This document shows, piece by piece, positions 5,756 through 64,000 of a stretch of 64,000 nt of DNA (within the stretch, counting starts at the first letter, position 1; each line of letters opens with the position of its first letter). Origin of the DNA: Leucoraja ocellata (Eukaryota). Below the pieces are notes generated by a model, which saw only the letters and a list, made by a program, of their open reading frames with translations, made no database searches and was not told the origin of the DNA. Both the position numbers and the translations under genes were made by a program. Where the stretch lies: contig JAWMAR010000051.1 of NCBI GenBank assembly GCA_036785375.1, forward strand, positions 3,038,001-3,102,000, read 5' to 3'.

Positions 5756-6690
5756 TGACAATAGACAATAGGTGCAGGAGCAGGCCATTTGGCCCTTCGA
5801 GTCAGCACCACCATTCAATGTGATCATGGCTGATCATCTCCAATCAGTACCCCATTCCTGCCTTCTCCCCATATCCCCTGACTCCGTTATTTTTAAGAGC
5901 CCTATCTAGCTCTCTCTTGAAAACATCCAGAGAACCTGCCTCCACCGCCCTCTGAGGAAGATAATTCCACAGACTCACCACTCTCTGTGGGAAAAAGTGT
6001 TTCCTCGTCTCCGTTCTAAAACGTATTCTTAAACTGTTGTCCCTGGTACTGGACTCCCCCAATATCGGGAACATGTTTCCTGCCTCTAGCATGTCCAAGC
6101 CCTTAACAATCTTATATGTTTCAATGAGATACCCTCTCATCCTTCTAAACTCCAGAGTGATCAAGCCCAGCTGCTCCATTCTCTCAGCATATGACAGTCC
6201 CGCCATCCTGGGAATTAACCTTGTAAACCTGCACTGCTCTCCCTCAATAGAAAGAATGTCCTTCCTCAAATTAGGGGACCAAAACTGCACACAATACTCC
6301 AGGTGTGGTCTCACTAGGGCTCTGTACAACTGCAGAAGGTCCTCTTTGCTCCTATATTCGATTCCTCGTGTTATAAAGGCCAACATGCCATTCGCTTTCT
6401 TCACTGCCTGCTGTACCTGCATGCTTACTTTCATAGACTGATGTACAAGGACCCCCAGATCCCATTGTACTTCCCGTTTTCCCAACAACGCCATTTAGAT
6501 AGTAATCTGCCTTCCTGTTTTTGCTACCAGTGGATAACCTCACATTTATCCACATTAAACCTCATCTGCCATGCATCTGCCCACTCCCCCAACCTGTCCA
6601 AGTCACCCTGCATTCTCATAGCATCCTCCTCCTCCTCCTAGTTCACACTGCCACCCAGCTTTGTGTCACCTGCAAATTTGCTAATGTTTT
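5756..6690 (-). mobile_element. Relatively young 5'-truncated CR1 LINE (ORF2 C-terminus + 3'UTR)
   Basis: ORF 5844-6494: DLGVLVHQSMKVSMQVQQAVKKANGMLAFI...LYRALVRPHLEYCVQFWSP...RRMRGYLIETYKI, hallmark CR1 ORF2; (TATTGTC)n tail. Confidence 0.95.
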
Positions 6691-33064: not shown

Positions 33065-33553
33065 CATACATCGATAGATGCTCCTGAACACATCATCAGT
33101 GATGTAACCTAGTGCCATTGGGTGTTTCGGGTCTTTCAACATCAGACACCTGCACCCAGACGACCCAGCCGTGGTTGATCAGACCACGACTTGTGTTCAG
33201 GTGGCATTCGCTCCTCCCCATGGACCTCCTTTCCTGATCCAGAACCATCTTGATGCCTTCTCCACTGCCTCTGTGGTGTTCTTGATGGCCCTTCTCCTTG
33301 CCACTCCGTTGATGCCCAGTGCATTCAAGGCTTTGTAGAGCGATTGCCCTGCAAAACCTCTGCACCCAACCTTGATGGGCATACACCTTGCCTTCCAGCC
33401 CTGCTTACGGCAGTCTATGACCAGCTCTTCATACTTGGCCATCTTCCTCTCGTGGGCCTCCTCCAGACAGTCCTCCCACGGCACTGTCAGTTCCAACAAG
33501 ACAATGTTTTTGGTCGCCTCTGAGACCAGGAGGATATCTGGCCTCAGGGTGGT
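33065..33553 (-). mobile_element. HERO-type (R2 superfamily, RLE endonuclease) non-LTR retrotransposon 3' end
   Basis: Open frame TTLRPDILLVSEATKNIVLLELTVPWEDCLEEAHERKMAKYEEL...PIKVGCRGF...AVEKASRWFWIRK, a PD-(D/E)xK restriction-like endonuclease; stop at 33197, short 3'UTR. Confidence 0.85.
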
Positions 33554-34828
33554 ACCCTTGCTGGTTCCACAACATACTGATCTAGAATGCTATCTCTTAC
33601 ACATAAACAAATTTGTCACTGACAGTATTTGAACTATTCATTTTATACTCGGGTTAAAATCTCCTTGATCATGCTGTTGCACATAGCTCTAAATTCCTGA
33701 TTTATCCTATACCCTACACTTCCCAATTTATACACAGGCCGTCATTTATGTCTTTTGAATCATTTTTCTCTGCCTTGCCTTTGATTAGAAGTATTTTTCT
33801 CTGCTAATATAATCTGGCAATTTGCCATCCTATAAAATCTTTTCCTTTCCGACTTTCCAAACACCCCCTCACCCGAGTTATTCATCACCTGAGTTATTCT
33901 AATCACACACTGTTCATGGTCCAATCCAGGCAACGCCTATTATCACCAAAATGCAAATCATCTAATCTACAACAATTCTCACTTCCTTCTCATTCCTTGC
34001 CCATGATACTGAGCAACACACCAAACTTCAACCATGAATGCAGCATTTCCCCATGATCACCAACAAGGTGGTCCTGCAGTGGTCCTTAGACTATTACATT
34101 GCGTCTTGCACTATAGAGAACCAAGAGATAAGCAATGGACTGGAATTCTTCATATCAGTACAGACAACAGATAGAAATGCGTTTTAAGAAATTTTACCAG
34201 GCGCAATAAACTAAAAGAATAAATTTAAATTTATTCATGGGCGAAAGGTTGGTGAGTAAATGTTGGATGGAGAGACAGCAAGAGCCAGTGAGAAAAACAT
34301 GTGAAAATTTTATTGAATGCAGGAATGAGATCAAAATGGTTCAATTTCCAGACTGGTAAGGTTGGCTGATATTGGTATCATAATATGTTATGAAAAGAGG
34401 CATGCAATTTCTATAGCAACCAGATTATTCAGGTTTGCAGGTGTAATGATACTCCTTGCTTCTATTCATACTTGGAACTCAAAGTGTGATTACTTTCTTA
34501 AAAGGATTACCAAATTATCTGGAATGCTGCAGAAAAAAAAATACAGTACAGCTGATTTGTTTCAGAGTTCCCTCAGGTACAGTGGCTAACATTATAGCTG
34601 CTTCTGATATTTTATACAAAAAAATATTTAGTTTTGCCTGAGAAGTTTTGTTCATCACAATTTTACATTTGTGTTTTGCACTTAACGGATTTTGATTAAT
34701 GAAAAAACTTGTTACCAATCATTAGAGCATTTTAACAACCTGCAGACCATGATCTATAGCTTAACACTTTGAATATCTTCAGCTAACAATCAAAAACATC
34801 CACATTTGCACAAGCAGCAAATGCAGTA

Positions 34829-45099: not shown

Positions 45100-45294
45100 C
45101 TCAAAATCATTTGCTTTGTTGTAGTGCATGTTTAAGGCTCTGAAGAGTTCAGAGTCACGGGAGACAGTCAGCTCCTCCGTGCTTGTTGTCCCATCGTTAA
45201 TAGACTGACGAGCAAACTTCTCCATCTGGATGTAGTAAAATTCTCGGAAATTGCTGAACCACTTGATAAGCTGTGAGGTGATGCACCTATTAAA
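45100..45294 (-). CDS. PROX1: PROX1 internal coding exon (homeodomain/Prospero domain; equivalent to mammalian exon 4)
   Basis: Translates FNRCITSQLIKWFSNFREFYYIQMEKFARQSINDGTTSTEELTVSRDSELFRALNMHYNKANDFE. 195 nt, in frame with the previous exon. Acceptor TTTTTTCGATTGGCAG|TTT, donor GAG|GTACGG. Confidence 0.97.
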
Positions 45295-54395: not shown

Positions 54396-55338
54396 TTCAA
54401 CATGCACTTCTAATAAATTGGAACATCAGTAGAAATGGAAACCACTCTCACGATTCGATTTTTTTTAACATTAAAATAAACTACATCAACGATACTGAAC
54501 ATGGTTATTAATATGCCACTTACAGCAAACCATGGGACAATGTCTGCTGCAAAAGGCTTAAAAGCCCAATAGGAAAATATAAATGTATGCAATAATTCTT
54601 TAAAGTTTGCCTAGTTTCTGCATAATATTCTTAAAATTATAAAACGTGGAATTTTACTTTATATTGACCGATATCCAAACTACAGTTTATCACAACTGTG
54701 ATTTTGTTCATTCTTTTGATGAAAGGATACTCTGCAGGAATGTGTGTCTCGTTGAATGTGTAACAATCATTAACAAGTAGTGAAAATTATTTCCAACCCG
54801 AGGGAGGGAAATGAGGATCTATCCACTCAGACGCTGTGTGAAGAAGACATTTCTGCTGAGTAATGTTTTACTGATTCTCCGAAATGACTAAATGAAAAAA
54901 ACTAACCAACATTCCAAGTTTGATGAAAAATGATCTGATGTTGTAATTCCACAATGGTCTCAGTTTTTATTAAGATAATTTAGAACAAACTAAAACTTAA
55001 TATTCCAAGCGTTTATGACAAATGCAATAGCCATTTTGCAGGTGACACTGGGAGTTGGTTGAAGAACAACTAGTTCAAATCAGAAAAACGAAACTGCAGA
55101 TTAGGGGTAAATATACGCGGAGCAGAGGGAGGGTGCTGCTGCTAGTGGACAGCCTTCATATTCTCATTTGAATAATGCGGCCTGAATCTGTCAGTTTACT
55201 CACCATCCCTCTGCTCAATCTATAACTACATCAAGAACTATTTAAAAAGTACACAGAAGACAAGAACCATCATTGTTTTGTTTTTTCTTGTTGCAATAGG
55301 CGTGACCACAGAAAATGCAATAATCTCCTCAGACTTAC

Positions 55339-55446
55339 CTTCACGTCAGAGAAGAACATCTTCAGCATGTTTGAACTGGGGTACCGCGTGTAGAAGAACA
55401 TCAGCTTCGCCTTTTTGAGGTGGTTGGGTGACAGTCCCTCCTGTAT
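55339..55446 (-). CDS. PROX1: PROX1 internal coding exon (start of atypical homeodomain; equivalent to mammalian exon 3)
   Basis: Minus strand translates [36 protein letters not shown], the Prospero-type homeodomain N-terminus. 108 nt, phase 0, the size I recall for the mammalian exon. Donor AAG|GTAAGT at 55338; acceptor ...CATCATAC|ATA (AC-ending intron). Confidence 0.96.
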
Positions 55447-55470
55447 GTATGATGCTGAGCGTCAAGGAAA
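55447..55470 (-). promoter_or_regulatory. U12-type (minor spliceosome) branch site and AC 3' splice site of PROX1 intron
   Basis: Minus strand TTTCCTTGAC (55470-55461) matches the U12 branch consensus TTCCTTRAC. It is followed by 14 nt ending in AC directly before the exon, with no polypyrimidine tract. Confidence 0.9.
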
Positions 55471-57924
55471 ATCTACGGAGCATTTATGGGAAACAACACT
55501 GTTTGAAGAGAACACTTCTGCTGAGCAATGTCTTGGTGACCCTCTGAAAAGTCTAAATAAATTAAAAAAGCTAACCAATATTCCCACGTTCAAAGTAAAA
55601 AAGGAGGTACACAAAATTTTAATTATTTCGATTTGCTCTACTATTACCCCCAGACATTAATCAGGAGAGAACAGAAATATTGCACTGTCTATAGATTAAT
55701 AATAATGGATACAACACTTACAATCATCACAAGTCTTACAGTGTTGTTACTTCACTGATAAAAGCTGCAGTATTCGAGAAGAAATGAAAAAGGCTATTAT
55801 ATTGTGTCAGAATAAGTCACAACTGACATTACAATTTAACAAGTTAGCTGGAGATGCAAAAGAAACTCACAAAACAAATAAGGGCATTATTATAAAGTTA
55901 AAAATTAAACATCTTTGCTCATAGCAGAGAACACAGTATGCCTGGAAACCTTGCACAGAGAGGTTAGCGAATAGATCTAGAGATATCTGACCTACGCAGG
56001 GGTACTGAACCAAGATGTATGAAAGGTTAGTTTTCTGACAGACAAAGAGCCCCCAAGGGCCAGCTGATCAATATTTTTTTTCTTACATTGATAAAGAACC
56101 CTATTTATCTGCAAATATTACTACCCTTCAGGTCTGTAGACAGAAGCTTCCTAAAATAGTTCCCAGGAGAAAGTTTAATGCGAGGCTAACCGTAACAATC
56201 TAGCAATTCTGTTTTTCAAATAGCTTCCTTGGCACTCTTTTGTGCTTTGTGCATTAGTAGGGGTTTGGCACATCTGCGCTGCAGTTCGCCCACCATTTCC
56301 TCCACAAATTAATGGCTTTATAATTTATCAGAAATGAAGATGCATGTGGAGAAAATCAATGTGGGCCCCGGAAGGTCAATTAAGGGGTGCTTTCCAGAAG
56401 TTATTCCAAAGGGTATTATATTGAAGATTACATTTAAGAGCAAAAATGCTGTTAACTTCCATGGCTACACAAGTCATTTTGAAAAGATCTACTAATTTAT
56501 TTGAGGTGAAATCATTGTAAATGGAGATCCTATCTAAATGAACAAACTCTTAAGCAACTCGATCAAGCTGATGCTTTGTATTTCGAAAGCTTAATGATGG
56601 CTAAGATGATAACTCATGATTGACATGCTTCTTGTACCAAGAGGGAAGAGTTGAAAAACCTTCTGTGACCTCCATTAGACTGATAGGGAAGACTAAAAGA
56701 GCATTACACTCTCCACTGCCATCTGTCATAATGCATAAGTGAAATGACGATGGCAAATGAAAGGAAGTATAGCAAGCTGTTCTGCAGCGGCACATGAAGT
56801 GCCGAGAACTAAAAGAATCAATGCCTGCCTGCGCTGAAGGAAATAATGGAAGGAGGAGAAACAGACAGAATCTTCAAAATGCTTTAAAGATGCAAACAAA
56901 ATATTGCAAGGTAGACATTGCCATATGGAAAACTGCTGACTTGCAAGGATATCATCTTTTGAACTATATCCCAATTTAAATTCCTATTCAGGAATGCACT
57001 CCTTTAGAATCCATTTATCAGTTTCAGTTCAAATACAAACATTTAAAAACCAACTGGTGAATTCTGACGTACCCAATCCAGATTACTGAAGGAAGACTAC
57101 TGGGAAAGAGAGATTAGGGTTGAATGAATTGGCAATATTAGAATATTAATACAGGAACACTAAACAGTTGCACATCTTCCTGTTCATTATAAATGGAATA
57201 TGCAGGTCCACGCCACCATGAATCAATGTTTAAATTTTACATTAAAAAAAAATTAAGATCAAGAACAGTTCACAATATGCCCTCTAATGTATATTTAGCA
57301 CAGAGTTAAATTGATAAAGTAATAATGGTTTATGTTGAATCCACTTAGTTAAAACATACAATTAACTAAACTATAATTTGTCACTCTCTCCCTCTCTCTG
57401 GTTTGGAAATACAAGACCATTCTAATCATGGCATCTCAACCTCTCAATTATATTCCCAACCAGCTCTCTATGTTGCGGGCATGGGCCTTCTCTTTCAACT
57501 ACATTAAAAACTGGTAAACTTTGTTATCCAGCGTTCCTTACTACATTATTTTTAAATCATTCATGATGCATCAGAAGAAAAAAAACCCCACATCTAAAAC
57601 AAAATTTTCTGGTGGAAAATAACAATGATCATTAATGCCTAAATTATTATTACAGATTTACCACAAGGCTAAAATCCCATAAGATCATGAATTGCACAAA
57701 GCAATTTTACAGGGTTACATCTGTTACGCCAGTGGCACTTTGGCAAACAGAAGATTACATTGCATTTACCAGGCTAAAATCTCCTGGAAGATAAAATTAA
57801 TATAAATTTTATCTCGTTGCATCTAAATGATGTGGTTTAATTGATCTACCATTGAAATTTATAAAATGTGATGGCCAGCTAATTAATAAAATGACTATCA
57901 AATAAAAAGAAAATGGAGGTGGAT

Positions 57925-58195
57925 AACATCAGGGACAAGTTTCAAGGCAGGGTATAAGATGTTTACTGAGCAACCTACTAAAGGGAGGTTGGAAGCTGGA
58001 ACTCACTGCCTGAAGGGGTGGAGATTTGTGCAGCATTTATGAAGTATCTGGCCAAGCACCTGAATCACCAAGGCATGGAAGGCTACAAGCTGTGTTGGTA
58101 AATGAGATTAGTATAGATACAAACTGTAGGCACTTGATGGTCACATGGACATGGTGAGCTGAGGGCCTGCTTCTAAGCTCATTGGCTCTACGACT
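57925..58195 (+). mobile_element. Old CR1 3' fragment
   Basis: CTGGAACTCACTGCCTGAAGGGGTGG..CATTTATGAAGTATCTGG..GGACATGGTGAGCTGAGGGCCTGCTTC. Confidence 0.7.
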
Positions 58196-61100
58196 GCTTC
58201 AGGTACTTCAGTACAACAGTTTTTCCTACATTCGTTATTATCATGAAAATTACAGCAGCCTACATTAAAATATGGCTGTTAAGAAAGTAGTGCGTTTGCA
58301 GACTTGATCTTGCTTTTATTTTCCAAAAAACCTTGGATTATTACTATATTTGTCCACAATTTTACTCGAATTTGTTCTTGGGATGCAGTGATGTGATATT
58401 TATTGTTCATCCTTAATTGCTCAGAAAGCATGCTTTATTCAGATTTAACCCTTATTAAATATCGAGATGAGGAAATGTTCTTTTATAAATAGCAACTTCA
58501 TGCAAGCTAAACTTCATTTAGTCACAAATCTGTTATTGACTAAATTACTAAAGTTAATATCAAAATTAAAAGTTTTGAAGGGATATGTATTAACTAACTT
58601 GGTGGGCAGATTCCATGTCAGCAACTTGCTCTGTGGGTGTTTCAAGGAAGGGCAGATGTAATTTGAGGCCTCATGCTGTAGCAAAGCCAAGTAAAACTGA
58701 TCGCCATGGAGTTGAAAGTGGCATTAACTCAATTTTGCACGGATATATTGTGCAAACCTACAACTAGCGAGTGGTTCAAAATCCAATTTTAGAAAAGTTT
58801 ATTACAAAAACACTTGGTCTATTTCAATTTGTTAAATGACCACATCTGTTGAGAGCAACCGCAGGTGAAGAAACCAACTGCCTCCAATCTTTTCATCACC
58901 TAACAAGCACTGCTCAGGTAGCCACAAGAGCAATGTGTAAGGCAGATGAATTTGCTCCAGATACTTTTTGAGAATGTTTTGCATTAACTGTTTACATTCT
59001 CAGTTAGATGGGAAACAATGATGCAGGTTATCCCTGGCCTCCACTCACCTTTGGCTATTAATAGGATGCACGAGGAAGGGTAGCATGCCTCTCTATCCCC
59101 TCCCCCACCACATTATCTTTATTTACCTTCATTCAGGCAGCATGCCTCTAGCGTGGCAGCCATATTTCTATTAATGACCCCGCACAGTTAACCTTGACAA
59201 CAGAACAATAGGTGGGGTCGTGGACTTGCCACTAGAGACCAAAATAAGTGTAGAAAAAGTCACTACTGTGGAATCCTCTGGGAAAGGTGGAGAAAATGTT
59301 TTCTCGCAAACTTCACGAGGAATTTTTGGCCTCCAGCCCTGATATGGTAGAGATCATTCCCATATTTATCAACTTTCAATGTCATTTTTGCTCCCACTTA
59401 CTGGTTCTAAATGTCATACATCTCAGATTCCTGTGAAAACCACCCCCCAGGTTTATACATCAATATAAAACCTCACAAGAATGTAATTAATTATATCTCT
59501 ATGCCAAATACCTGCACAAGGATATGAATTGTGTTCTTGGGCTAAGAACACTTTCATTTTCAGAAGGAATGAAACAAGGGAGTACACAAATAATGTGTTT
59601 CTGCATCTTCAATTCCTGGATGTATTAAAAATGATTGAAAATCAGTCTGACCAACAACAGAAAATATTGTTTACTGCGGATCCCTTCTTCTTTAGGGTTC
59701 AGTGGGTGGGATGGGGTTGGTTTATGACAATTAACAGTGCACACCTTCAGAAGAAGAATTTCACTACCTAAAGAATTATTAATTTATTAGCATTTAATCA
59801 AAATAACTAAATGAACTTTAAAGATTTATTGGATTATATGAACTCCGTTAATCTGTTTAATGTTTTGTGAATTTATAAGAAAATTTAAAGCTAATGGAGA
59901 AAAATGACTCACTTTAATTTGTCATGTGTTATTTGTTAGATCAGCTGATATGTTTACTGTGTTCTTCCAAGAATTCTATAGCAGAAATATATCTGCTCTG
60001 TTATTCATTCAAGGAATGATTTTAAATAAAACATTGACACAAAGTTAAATGTTTATTCAAATATTATCCATTATAGTACATTTATTTAATTTGTGTTTTC
60101 CAGATTTCATTATCTATAGCCCCTTTTGTCTACATTTAAAATATAAAACATTCAAACTTAATTTGATCCTGTGCGTTTTATCCTTCTTATCCACTTCAAA
60201 CAAATGGACCATGATGTAAATTTTTACAGTAACAAAAGTTATTCTCTATATATTTACGTCATTGTGTCAACAGGAACATATGTTTTTATATTGCCTGCAA
60301 TGGATAAGGAAAATGTTAATCTGTCTTCTCAGGAATTTCAAAAAGAAGTGCACCCACTTTACTATTTCTACACAGACTGCCTACGACTTATTTCAAAGCT
60401 CTTCAGCAAGGGGATGCATCTTTGCAGCCTGTCAACATCCTCCTGCTACAATGCATTCACTGCTTAAATTCTAATCTCTTAATATTATCATTGGACCCCC
60501 TTGTTTAAAAGACAACAAAAACAGATGAGGAGCATCGTTTGAAAGTAAATGGTATCAAGTGCTGTGCTTTCATTATTTGTGTCTAACCAGCATTTCAGAG
60601 ATCATTCTATGTGGGGAGCTGTGCTTGCTGAAAAGGCATTTAAAGAGCCAGGACAGCTCAATTTAATATCTGCAGTTCTTGGTAGTGCTGATCCATGGTG
60701 GATGTGCCCAATCACCATGTAGTACACAGAGCGTTTGCAATTACTTAAAACTTTATACTTAACATTTATTTCCAATTTGTGGACAGAGGTGGTAAAAAGA
60801 ATATTTGTTCAACCTTGCACTAATAATTCACATAACTAATTATAATCACCCTTTAATAAGATTAACATTCCATAGTTTAATATCCTTGCACAATTGTTTA
60901 AAATATATATATATTCTAATTATATCTGGTGTAGAAATAAATTGTTTATTTCTATCTTATTTCATTCTAGACATACTTTCCTCTTATCTTAAAAGAAAGT
61001 TAGAATAAACTGTATTATATTTTCTATTCTGCAAAATATCACAGCAATAACTGACATGACTGCAGCACAATACAGAACATCAACTCTGACATTAAAGAGC

Positions 61101-64000
61101 TACATTAAACATTAATTTTATTAATTAAACATGAACGAACATTTAGGACCGCATGTGTGTTATTTTTAAAGTGAATCACCTGCCCAATCTCACTTTGTGG
61201 AAAAGAAATGTCAAAGAGGGAGCGCCCAATGCTTGAGCTACCAAATGTACACCATTGTTATTGAGTCATCCCAGCTGGACTCCAAATTTAATCCCAGGTC
61301 CCTCTTGAAATTATCTGGTTAGAGTTATGTTGGCAGTTGAAATACCACCATTGGTCTCAGTGCTCCAAGCCAAGGGAGAAAACAAATCAAGCAAATTTGC
61401 CGCCTGCAGCAAAAAAAATATGCATGATTGTTAAATGAAGACGGCATAGGGTTCTGCAATGATCATGAAATAACATGCCTGCACATATTACTCAAGCTGG
61501 TTCAAGAAGAATGGTTAGTTTCCATAGCACCATTATTGTCCTTGGTACTATACCTCAAGATGAATAATTATTTTTAGAGATGACAGAGAAGGGGAAAAAA
61601 ATGGTAAACAACACAAAGCAACGTAAAGATTGAGGATATGAACAGCTGGTGATATGTTATTTCATTTTGATTTCCTCAGTCATTTTATAGGATTTGGAAT
61701 CAGCGTAGTACATTTGTAAAAATTACATTTGACAAAATTGCAAATTTATATGTTCGTTCTTTAAATGCTAGGACATATGATTATCAAATCATATTAAATG
61801 CAAACGGAAAAGAAAATTAAATCACGGCATTTTTGAGAGTTTTTAAAACAACCTTAATAATTAATAAATACATCGTATAAATGAAATACTTCATTTTTTT
61901 TAACAATGTTGGGTAACTGCTACTTTGCCTAACTTGCTTCTAATATGAACTACAAAAAGCAGCTTAAAATCATGCTACACCAAAATTGATGTCACTGCTT
62001 CTCACAATAATGTAAAGCAGAACTGACCATTTTCCCTTTTAAGTGCTTACGCTAAAAGCAACTGTTCTCTCAAGAAAGCTCTGGCTGTTTCTAGGATACT
62101 TACACACGCACAATGACTCATGTTGGAATAGATTTTGTAAACATACAGCTGCACAGAATGTTAGCACAGCCCATTCAAGGCCAGAAGAAATGAGCACAAA
62201 TAAATATTAAGGAGGTAAGAAAACGTACAGCTCTGTCCCAGCAGCTCATGTGGCTCACCTCATTCTTTTAGCTTCAGCTTTGTTAAGACAGATGACATTC
62301 AATTCTACATGTCATGCAAAATAGACAATAACTGCTGAAACTTGAGCCAGCTGCCAGGTGTAAAAAAAAGAAAAGATGATAAATCCATAAATTAATGAAA
62401 GACATCTGCTCAGGAAAATAAAAGATCAGAGAAATACTGCACTGCAGCTGAACCTAAAGCAGTATTCAAACACCACACGAGTTTGTGTGTAGGCTGCATA
62501 CAGAGTTTTTACAAGGCAAATATGTAGAATTACCTGAGAGGCAGATGAGTTATGTCAGTGCAGGACAATGTAAAATTGCACAATTGGATTAAAGGCAGCA
62601 GCAGTGTAACTGGAACATTGCCATTTTTCCAATTCAGCCCGAGACTTTTTAAATCCATCCTTGACATGGACAATAAAGTTTTGTTTAAAAATAAATAATC
62701 AAAGCAGCATTTGCTTTATGTATCACTGTATGCCTATTGCTGCCAGAAAATAATTATTACAAAATTTGTGATCGAGTAGATAATTGCAGAATTTTAAGTA
62801 CAATTTCTAAATTCCATCTTGTTCAAGTTATCATCTTCTGCATTATTCCATATCATATGTAACGTAATCTTAGTTACCAGATTACTCGCAATTAAATATT
62901 TGGCACGGGACCAATGTTTGAAAGCATTAGAACTTGATTGTAGTTTCACTCCACCTGGTTCCTATTTATTATATTTTAGTTTATAACTCTAGGTGTCATC
63001 TTATTTTTTTGTTAGCTCCATGGAGATTGAATGTACTCGTCCATTAGCCTTGCCCCAAGCAGTAACTCAGCTCCAATGTGCTGTGTATTCTACAAGGTTA
63101 TTTTCTTGAGATGCAAAAGGAGGGTTGTGTCATGGAGGATCAAGGCTGAAATGTTGAGATAGCCATTCAACTGTTTCCTTTAACATTAGGGGTTGGGATG
63201 GTGGTGGGATAATTAGGGGAGGGGTTGCAGTAAAGAACCCCGGTCCAATTACTATCGTTCTATTCACGAGCTTGCAGAATATTTCACCATTAAGTTAAAG
63301 TAACTGAGATGCAACTGTGTGCAGCTGGACGTAATGGGTTTTAATACAATCATAATCTTTCTAGTTCAATAAGTACAAAATAGTACACAGTAAAAGTCAT
63401 TTCTCTTTTTGAGGACAATAAATTGTTACTATGGGAGTGAAATGGCTGAGCATCCTCTATTAGTTTAGCCAAATACCTGAAAATTCCTACAACATACTCC
63501 AGTCCAAAATTTGTGCATAGAGTAGGCCAAATTAAAGGGCAAGCAATATGTATCTTAACGCAACTTTCAAGGTAAGGTAATAAATTCATAGTTGCAATTT
63601 AAAAAGTGCATTTTCGTCACCTATGAAATATGTAACTGGCCATTTAATTCACGAAACACCGCAGCCTGCTGCTAAGCAACAATAAATGGTGCCGTATGTT
63701 ACTGACTCCTGTCAACAAATCTTTATAGTAAAAATAGAAGCTCTATTACTTCAACAAAGTGATAGGATAAAACAAAAGGAAAAGCTGTTTTGCGAACTGG
63801 CACTGAAATAGGAAAAATTGCTGTTGATGCACCATTTTGATACTGCATGAAATATTTTTGAGAGTTATCTGTTTGAAAAAGGGAAAAAAAGTACAGTAAA
63901 CCTTGTGAAAGAAGTTCAGTTTAGCTGAGCCCACTCTGATTGTGCTCACAAGCTTTTAAAATCATTTGCTTTGTATATACAAGGACAAAAGATTTCTGTG

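Follow-up and report, generated by a model that had tools for sequence, protein, structure and literature searches.

An AT-AC intron before the homeodomain exon of a skate PROX1 gene and a possible AT-AC to GT-AG switch in its PROX2-like paralog

All vertebrate Prox genes, like fly prospero, are described as having a U12-type AT/AC intron 2 where the homeobox begins (PMC2956630), and Table 2 of PMC2831892 lists the fly intron as a twintron and the human one as U12-type. Both papers agree with an earlier sequence-only reading of the locus studied here, which had counted vertebrate PROX1 among the U12-intron genes. The same Table 2 and PMC3564746 likewise agree with its statement that the AT-AC intron of Drosophila prospero contains nested U2 sites. 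These U2 sites arose in insects, and the nested GT-AG pair adds 29 amino acids to the protein in frame (PMC3564746); the layout and regulation of the fly twintron are described in PMC8329584. Table 1 of PMC3564746 names 18 human twintrons, a list from which PROX1 is absent. PMC6717393 gives AT donors for PROX1 and PROX2 in both human and mouse. Switches between U12 subtypes are known (PMC2831892), while PMC1557818 and PMC7730772 have little bearing on the PROX1 intron. Within a literature scope that mostly left out subscription journals, we found no report of a vertebrate PROX1 twintron or of such an isoform.

The window, a stretch of 64,000 nucleotides (G000:C51:3038001-3102000), carries PROX1 on its minus strand. 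Judged from protein matches, the gene is the PROX1 of a skate: the best matches are skate PROX1/prox1a (98-99%), the exon 2 protein is 99-100% identical to skate PROX1 models (99% to Amblyraja; 569 residues identical to Leucoraja), in line with the earlier label of chondrichthyan PROX1, and exon 4 matches the PROX1 structure 2LMD (E 3.9e-36). A separate Prox paralog is located on contig C87, which supports orthology of the window gene to PROX1 rather than to PROX2. A second genomic copy of the PROX1 region, on contig C635, has the same splice signals, including the same donor. Neither the window nor the 10 kb beyond its low end yielded the last PROX1 exon. The features are listed below in the direction of transcription, with extended coordinates continuing the window numbering past its end.

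Extended 65989-64277, minus strand: PROX1 exon 2, coding part (reading frame beyond the window end)
Extended 64276 (G000:C51:3102276), minus strand: start of intron 2 with the U12-type 5' splice site ATATCCTTT, directly after exon 2
55447..64000, minus strand: in-window part of PROX1 intron 2 (whole intron 8,830 nt)
55461..55470, minus strand: U12-type branch site TTTCCTTGAC, putative branch A at 55462 (motif and U12 snRNA complementarity)
55455..55457, minus strand: upstream CAG (-8), exon start would be 55454; not in frame with the U12 donor and without sign of use
55447..55448, minus strand: AC 3' end of intron 2 (in RNA, the sequence beyond 55446 is that of the exon 2 end)
55441..55443, minus strand: downstream CAG (+6), exon start would be 55440; encodes the Gln of QEGL, without sign of use in PROX1
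55339..55446, minus strand: PROX1 exon 3, 108 nt, homeodomain start (IQEGL...SDVK), both borders seen in RNA
55333..55338, minus strand: U2-type donor GTAAGT of intron 3 (exon 3-4 junction seen in RNA)
45100..45294, minus strand: PROX1 exon 4, 195 nt (FNRC...NDFE), placed by sequence match

When the contig is extended past 64000, as the sequence-only reading had proposed, exon 2 is found to end 276 bases beyond the window and to be followed directly by the U12-type donor ATATCCTTT; the bases after the end of its frame (extended 64277) are ATATCCTTTA. The donor conforms to RTATCCTTY and lies exactly at the exon 2 frame end in both genomic copies (C51 and C635), a placement with a chance of about 8e-6 under an independent-base model. 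At the other end of the intron, the minus strand has, in order, TTTCCTTGAC (55470-55461), a 14-nt segment with AC as its last two letters, the 108-nt exon (55446-55339), whose translation ends in ...FSDVK, and GTAAGT, so that the letters confirm the branch site 14 nt from an AC terminus and the exon starting I-Q-E-G-L that had been read there. The branch site conforms to TTCCTTRAC, a motif seen twice in the window against 1.2 expected and thus by itself not above chance; in its slot of 11 positions the chance is about 1e-4 (independent-base model). From AT to AC, intron 2 measures 8,830 nt and is in phase 0, and the join of exons 2 and 3, S-G-N-T / I-Q-E-G-L, is in frame, with no stop through exon 4. 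Because intron and exon both begin with ATA, the placement of the junction can slide by up to 3 nt; of the possible placements, only AT-AC matches a known intron class. Two other ATATCCTTG matches within the intron (59525 and 56952) were considered as donors and rejected, since neither is preceded by a long coding frame and, in RNA, it is the exon 2 end that connects to 55446.

The RNA comes from relatives, namely, three raw RNA runs (organism B) and one contig set (organism A), the tissues of the runs not being given. None of the listed RNA runs is of organism D, which carries the DNA in full; this has no bearing on expression. Four of the 24 listed runs were aligned to 55200-55650, giving 5, 5 and 16 records for the raw runs and 2 for the contig set. 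Reads were aligned around exon 3 only, and the donor used is seen in the letters of their loose ends, which are listed from three reads up. At 55446, four reads of run X21, five reads of run X24 and one contig of set X1 have loose ends with the letters of the exon 2 end; they agree exactly with the genome in X21 and X1 and differ by one letter in X24. The X1 contig, which is 5,786 nt long, shows no difference over exon 3. Splicing at the AT and AC termini is thus observed in the RNA of relatives (nine listed reads and one contig), and AT-AC is the main splice form. The sequence-only reading had called for a count of junctions ending at 55446, 55440 and 55454; no loose end is listed at either of the latter two positions in the relatives' RNA, among nine listed junction reads and with three reads needed for listing. 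By depth, all four X21 reads end at 55446 (1.75 = 4 x 7/16) and two X17 reads fit ends at or beside it (0.81 = 13/16), while X24 has a depth of 4.69 in the bin 55440-55455, in which single reads are not separable. With 0 of 9 reads for another form, the 95% upper bound lies near 28%; the read depth is low, and a form below about 25-30% is therefore compatible with the reads. The few intronic RNA records at window positions 55501-55650, just 5' of the branch site (X24 reads and one X1 contig), are compatible with unspliced intron 2 and are too few to weigh.

The genome holds U11 and U12 snRNA genes that score over the Rfam cut-off. The branch region forms nine Watson-Crick pairs with nt 20-28 of the U12 snRNA of this genome, and the pairing, read by eye, extends into the nt 18-28 region by a G-U pair, a bulged A and a C-G pair; the donor forms five Watson-Crick pairs with the 5' end of U11. 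With signals, reading frame and junction all observed, we are highly confident that the site is the 3' end of the AT-AC intron 2, which is cut out precisely at the AC. The minor (U12) spliceosome is the likely agent, AT-AC splicing is likely the one major form, and minor forms are likely absent. In the proposed mechanism, U11 would pair with the ATATCCTTT donor and U12 with the TTTCCTTGAC branch site, and the acceptor would be picked by its distance from the latter. The -8 AG, the AC and the +6 AG follow the branch motif at 6, 14 and 20 nt, respectively, and the AC is near the optimum of 11-13 nt given in PMC3584512. Such a choice would produce the in-frame exon join described above; the upstream AG would probably be incidental, and the downstream one would be a codon kept for the protein.

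This arrangement is that of the known conserved minor intron of vertebrate Prox genes, and in this sense it is ordinary. The skate intron shares with vertebrate PROX1/Prox intron 2 its place before the homeodomain, phase 0, the donor ATATCCTTT and the AT-AC ends, and PMC6717393 lists human and mouse PROX2 with the same branch motif, TTTTCCTTGAC. The length of the skate intron compares with 6,904 nt in human and 6,998 nt in mouse (PMC6717393), and skate exon 3, like that of bony fishes, opens with Ile rather than Met, none of which is a difference of kind. The intron is also orthologous to the AT-AC intron of Drosophila prospero, at the same place, where pros-S is made by U12 and pros-L by U2 splicing. 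However, whereas the fly intron carries the nested in-frame GT-AG pair, neither a nested in-frame pair nor a second form was found in skate PROX1.

The two CAGs reported by the sequence-only reading, one 8 nt inside the intron and the other, in frame, 6 nt into the exon, are present as described. From them, it had suggested a prospero-like twintron, that is, a regulated U2 intron overlapping the U12 intron and giving a second protein with an altered homeodomain start. We consider such an arrangement highly improbable, and a vertebrate PROX1 twintron is unsupported by the evidence. The -8 AG does have a fair pyrimidine stretch (68%, run of 8), equal in content to that before the genuine U2 acceptor of exon 4 (also 68%, with a run of 7), but the run is the U12 branch motif itself, and, with YAG in 28% and AG in 48% of the 12-nt windows of intron 2, an AG at the upstream position is no more than chance would give. 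Twelve GTs lying within 300 nt of the donor were listed (those scoring at least 5/9 or lying within 45 nt), of which eight are intronic. Whereas the fly layout is a nested in-frame pair, no such pair exists among these eight: all of them, joined to the -8 AG, run into a stop before the homeodomain is complete, and in the case of the six listed past +33 an in-frame TAA is taken in. With the same AG, the U12 donor gives a frameshift with a stop at codon 589; with the +6 AG, which belongs to the Gln codon of QEGL, Ile-Gln is lost. Four shifted in-frame GT-AG pairs can be written, with donors scoring 4-6/9 on a crude consensus count: the -8 AG with exonic GTs at -80 (6/9) or -47 (5/9), and the +6 AG with GTs at +25 (4/9) or -144 (5/9). 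On the same count, the true exon 4 donor scores just 6/9, equal to some of these candidates. Purine runs, too crude a proxy for the purine-rich enhancer of the fly to carry weight, do not exceed 6 nt within 600 nt of either intron end, and the longest in the whole intron measures 16 nt. A further point in favour of the twintron is that Table S7 of PMC6717393 lists mouse Prox1 and Prox2 with cryptic 5' and 3' sites at 100%. These entries, however, stand at 100% at both ends in every tissue measured, as do those of many genes in the table, and the human sheet, in the part available, has no PROX1 row. The mouse Prox1 calls would be explained as a mapping artefact of junction sliding, given that the first letters of intron and exon are identical; the table parts used do not give the coordinates of the cryptic sites. 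Thus, of the earlier interpretation, the conserved U12-type AT-AC intron before the homeodomain exon stands, with its donor found and its junction seen in the relatives' RNA, whereas the dual-pathway reading, with no reads listed at either AG, does not.

Two further explanations concern the same AGs. The minor spliceosome might sometimes, at a low and perhaps noisy level, take the +6 AG, giving an AT-AG intron, or the -8 AG, likely followed by decay of the frameshifted product. U12 acceptor choice has been described as error-prone (PMC3584512), Pyxicephalus PROX1 models X1/X2 have two residues more than the plain X3/X4, and the PROX2-like paralog likely uses the +6 AG. Set against this, AT-AG is described as disfavoured in the same source, none of 143 PROX1 models loses the Ile/Met-Gln pair in this way, and the X21 reads all end at the AC junction. 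We regard a share above 5% for such use as unlikely. A standard GT-AG intron that runs to 55441 and leaves an exon of 102 nt is close to impossible, although an in-frame CAG does precede E-G-L: exon 2 is followed by AT, not GT, and the reads and the contig contain the six bases 55446-55441. Hence, rather than a GT donor with reads joining only at 55440, which the sequence-only reading had named as contrary evidence, we observe an AT donor and reads at 55446, and the ordinary GT-AG reading is refuted.

The set of 143 PROX1-type proteins, clustered at 90% identity, consists of gene models and leaves out paralog rows and three in-house exon translations; of the largest shark cluster, 15 of 60 members are listed, and rare annotated forms may have escaped the count. 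The junction is plain in 94 models and of another form in 36, with the homeodomain start missing from the remaining 13, and the predicted mis-call of the exon as 102 nt did not occur in any of them. Among the 25 chondrichthyan models, 21 have the plain junction and four, from sharks and rays, have two additional residues, which fit neither AG joined to the U12 donor, as judged on the sites of this genome; in the Leucoraja model, exon 3 begins at 55458, a position that no AG precedes. The two-residue junctions are likely model errors, and, since they appear in four of 25 chondrichthyan models and are unseen in reads, the PROX1 intron provides a practical annotation warning. The 733/734 length difference between chondrichthyan isoforms was rejected as a junction variant, being due instead to an extra Gln before the last exon. 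Six frog models (P0023, P0026, P0029, P0030, P0047 and P0053) also have two extra residues at the junction (FY or LY), and in Pyxicephalus models of this type stand side by side with plain ones; an in-frame AG 6 nt upstream may be used there with the U12 donor, or these too may be model errors. In seven further amphibian models the residues are T-Q-F-Y or T-Q-S-Y, perhaps from a GT-AG intron called 5 nt ahead of the donor. Five teleost prox1a models reading into the intron end (P0081, P0122, P0129, P0132 and P0134) have Gln right before I-Q-E-G-L; no Gln codon has AC as its last two letters, and the teleost prox1a intron may therefore run from an AT donor to AG or AA.

Candidate optional exons and repeat-like stretches are found elsewhere in the window and beyond its end. 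On the minus strand, an in-frame stretch at 25977-25927, with AG and GT flanks, matches 17 of 17 residues of the insert in Amblyraja X1, and another at about 38302-38246 matches 18 of 19 residues of a Rhinoraja insert. Both inserts are annotated as optional exons between PROX1 exon 4 and the last exon, and shark PROX1 models have a different insert of 24-25 residues at the same place; such exons would change the prospero domain. Open frames at 5847-6494, 33200-33589 and, in extended coordinates, 87404-88492 (locus L005) are presumably decayed retrotransposon (LINE-type) fragments.

The paralog on C87, whose orthologues are named PROX2 or PROX1-like by NCBI, is present in one copy in the genome and has the following features (loci L023, L024 and L033).

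G000:C87:5795891: PROX2-like paralog donor, GT-type U12 donor
G000:C87:5784724-5784617: PROX2-like paralog exon 3

In this gene, GTATCCTTT follows exon 2 and a branch-like CCTTAAC precedes exon 3. At the ancestral AC position, the paralog reads CA, that is, neither AC nor AG, and its in-frame AG is that of the +6 CAG, 16 nt after the branch motif (distances by eye). The paralog intron is thus likely of the GT-AG type, with its acceptor 6 nt further on at the same Gln CAG as in PROX1. A quick tree contains 21 paralog gene models, the DNA having been seen for the skate genome alone. Among nine batoid rows, six are without Ile-Gln and three keep X-Gln (Pristis and two Mobula). Three of the five carpet-shark rows are without Ile-Gln, that of Rhincodon reads through as V-S-F (GT donor) and that of Hemiscyllium keeps Val-Gln. 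In the other seven rows, Ile-Gln is kept (four) or the model reads through as I-S-F (three; AT donor). The batoid and carpet-shark rows form separate clades, each with a support of 100, suggesting two independent switches as the simplest reading of the paralog models, into which four rows fit poorly. We tentatively propose, at slightly less than an even chance, that the Gln CAG of the homeodomain exon acted as a ready landing site, and that the paralog intron went from AT-AC to GT-AG via a shift of the acceptor to this CAG, dropping Ile-Gln, twice (in batoids and in carpet sharks), whereas PROX1 kept AT-AC. In line with the U12 subtype switching described in PMC2831892, PMC3584512 and PMC1557818, the paralog has a GT donor where orthologues are AT-AC; however, instead of AC turning into AG in place, the acceptor would have moved 6 nt to the codon CAG, with the loss of two residues. 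No report of this acceptor-shift switch was found in the literature covered, again mostly outside subscription journals.

The skate PROX1 intron itself adds nothing new and confirms the published picture of vertebrate Prox genes. PROX1 is a regulator of lymphatic, lens and liver development, hence the weight that a vertebrate twintron, if true, would carry: the homeodomain would be tuned by competition between two spliceosomes. The paralog, if confirmed, would represent a clean and possibly repeated natural switch from AT-AC to GT-AG by acceptor shift, and switching of this kind is the proposed first step in turning a minor intron into a major one.
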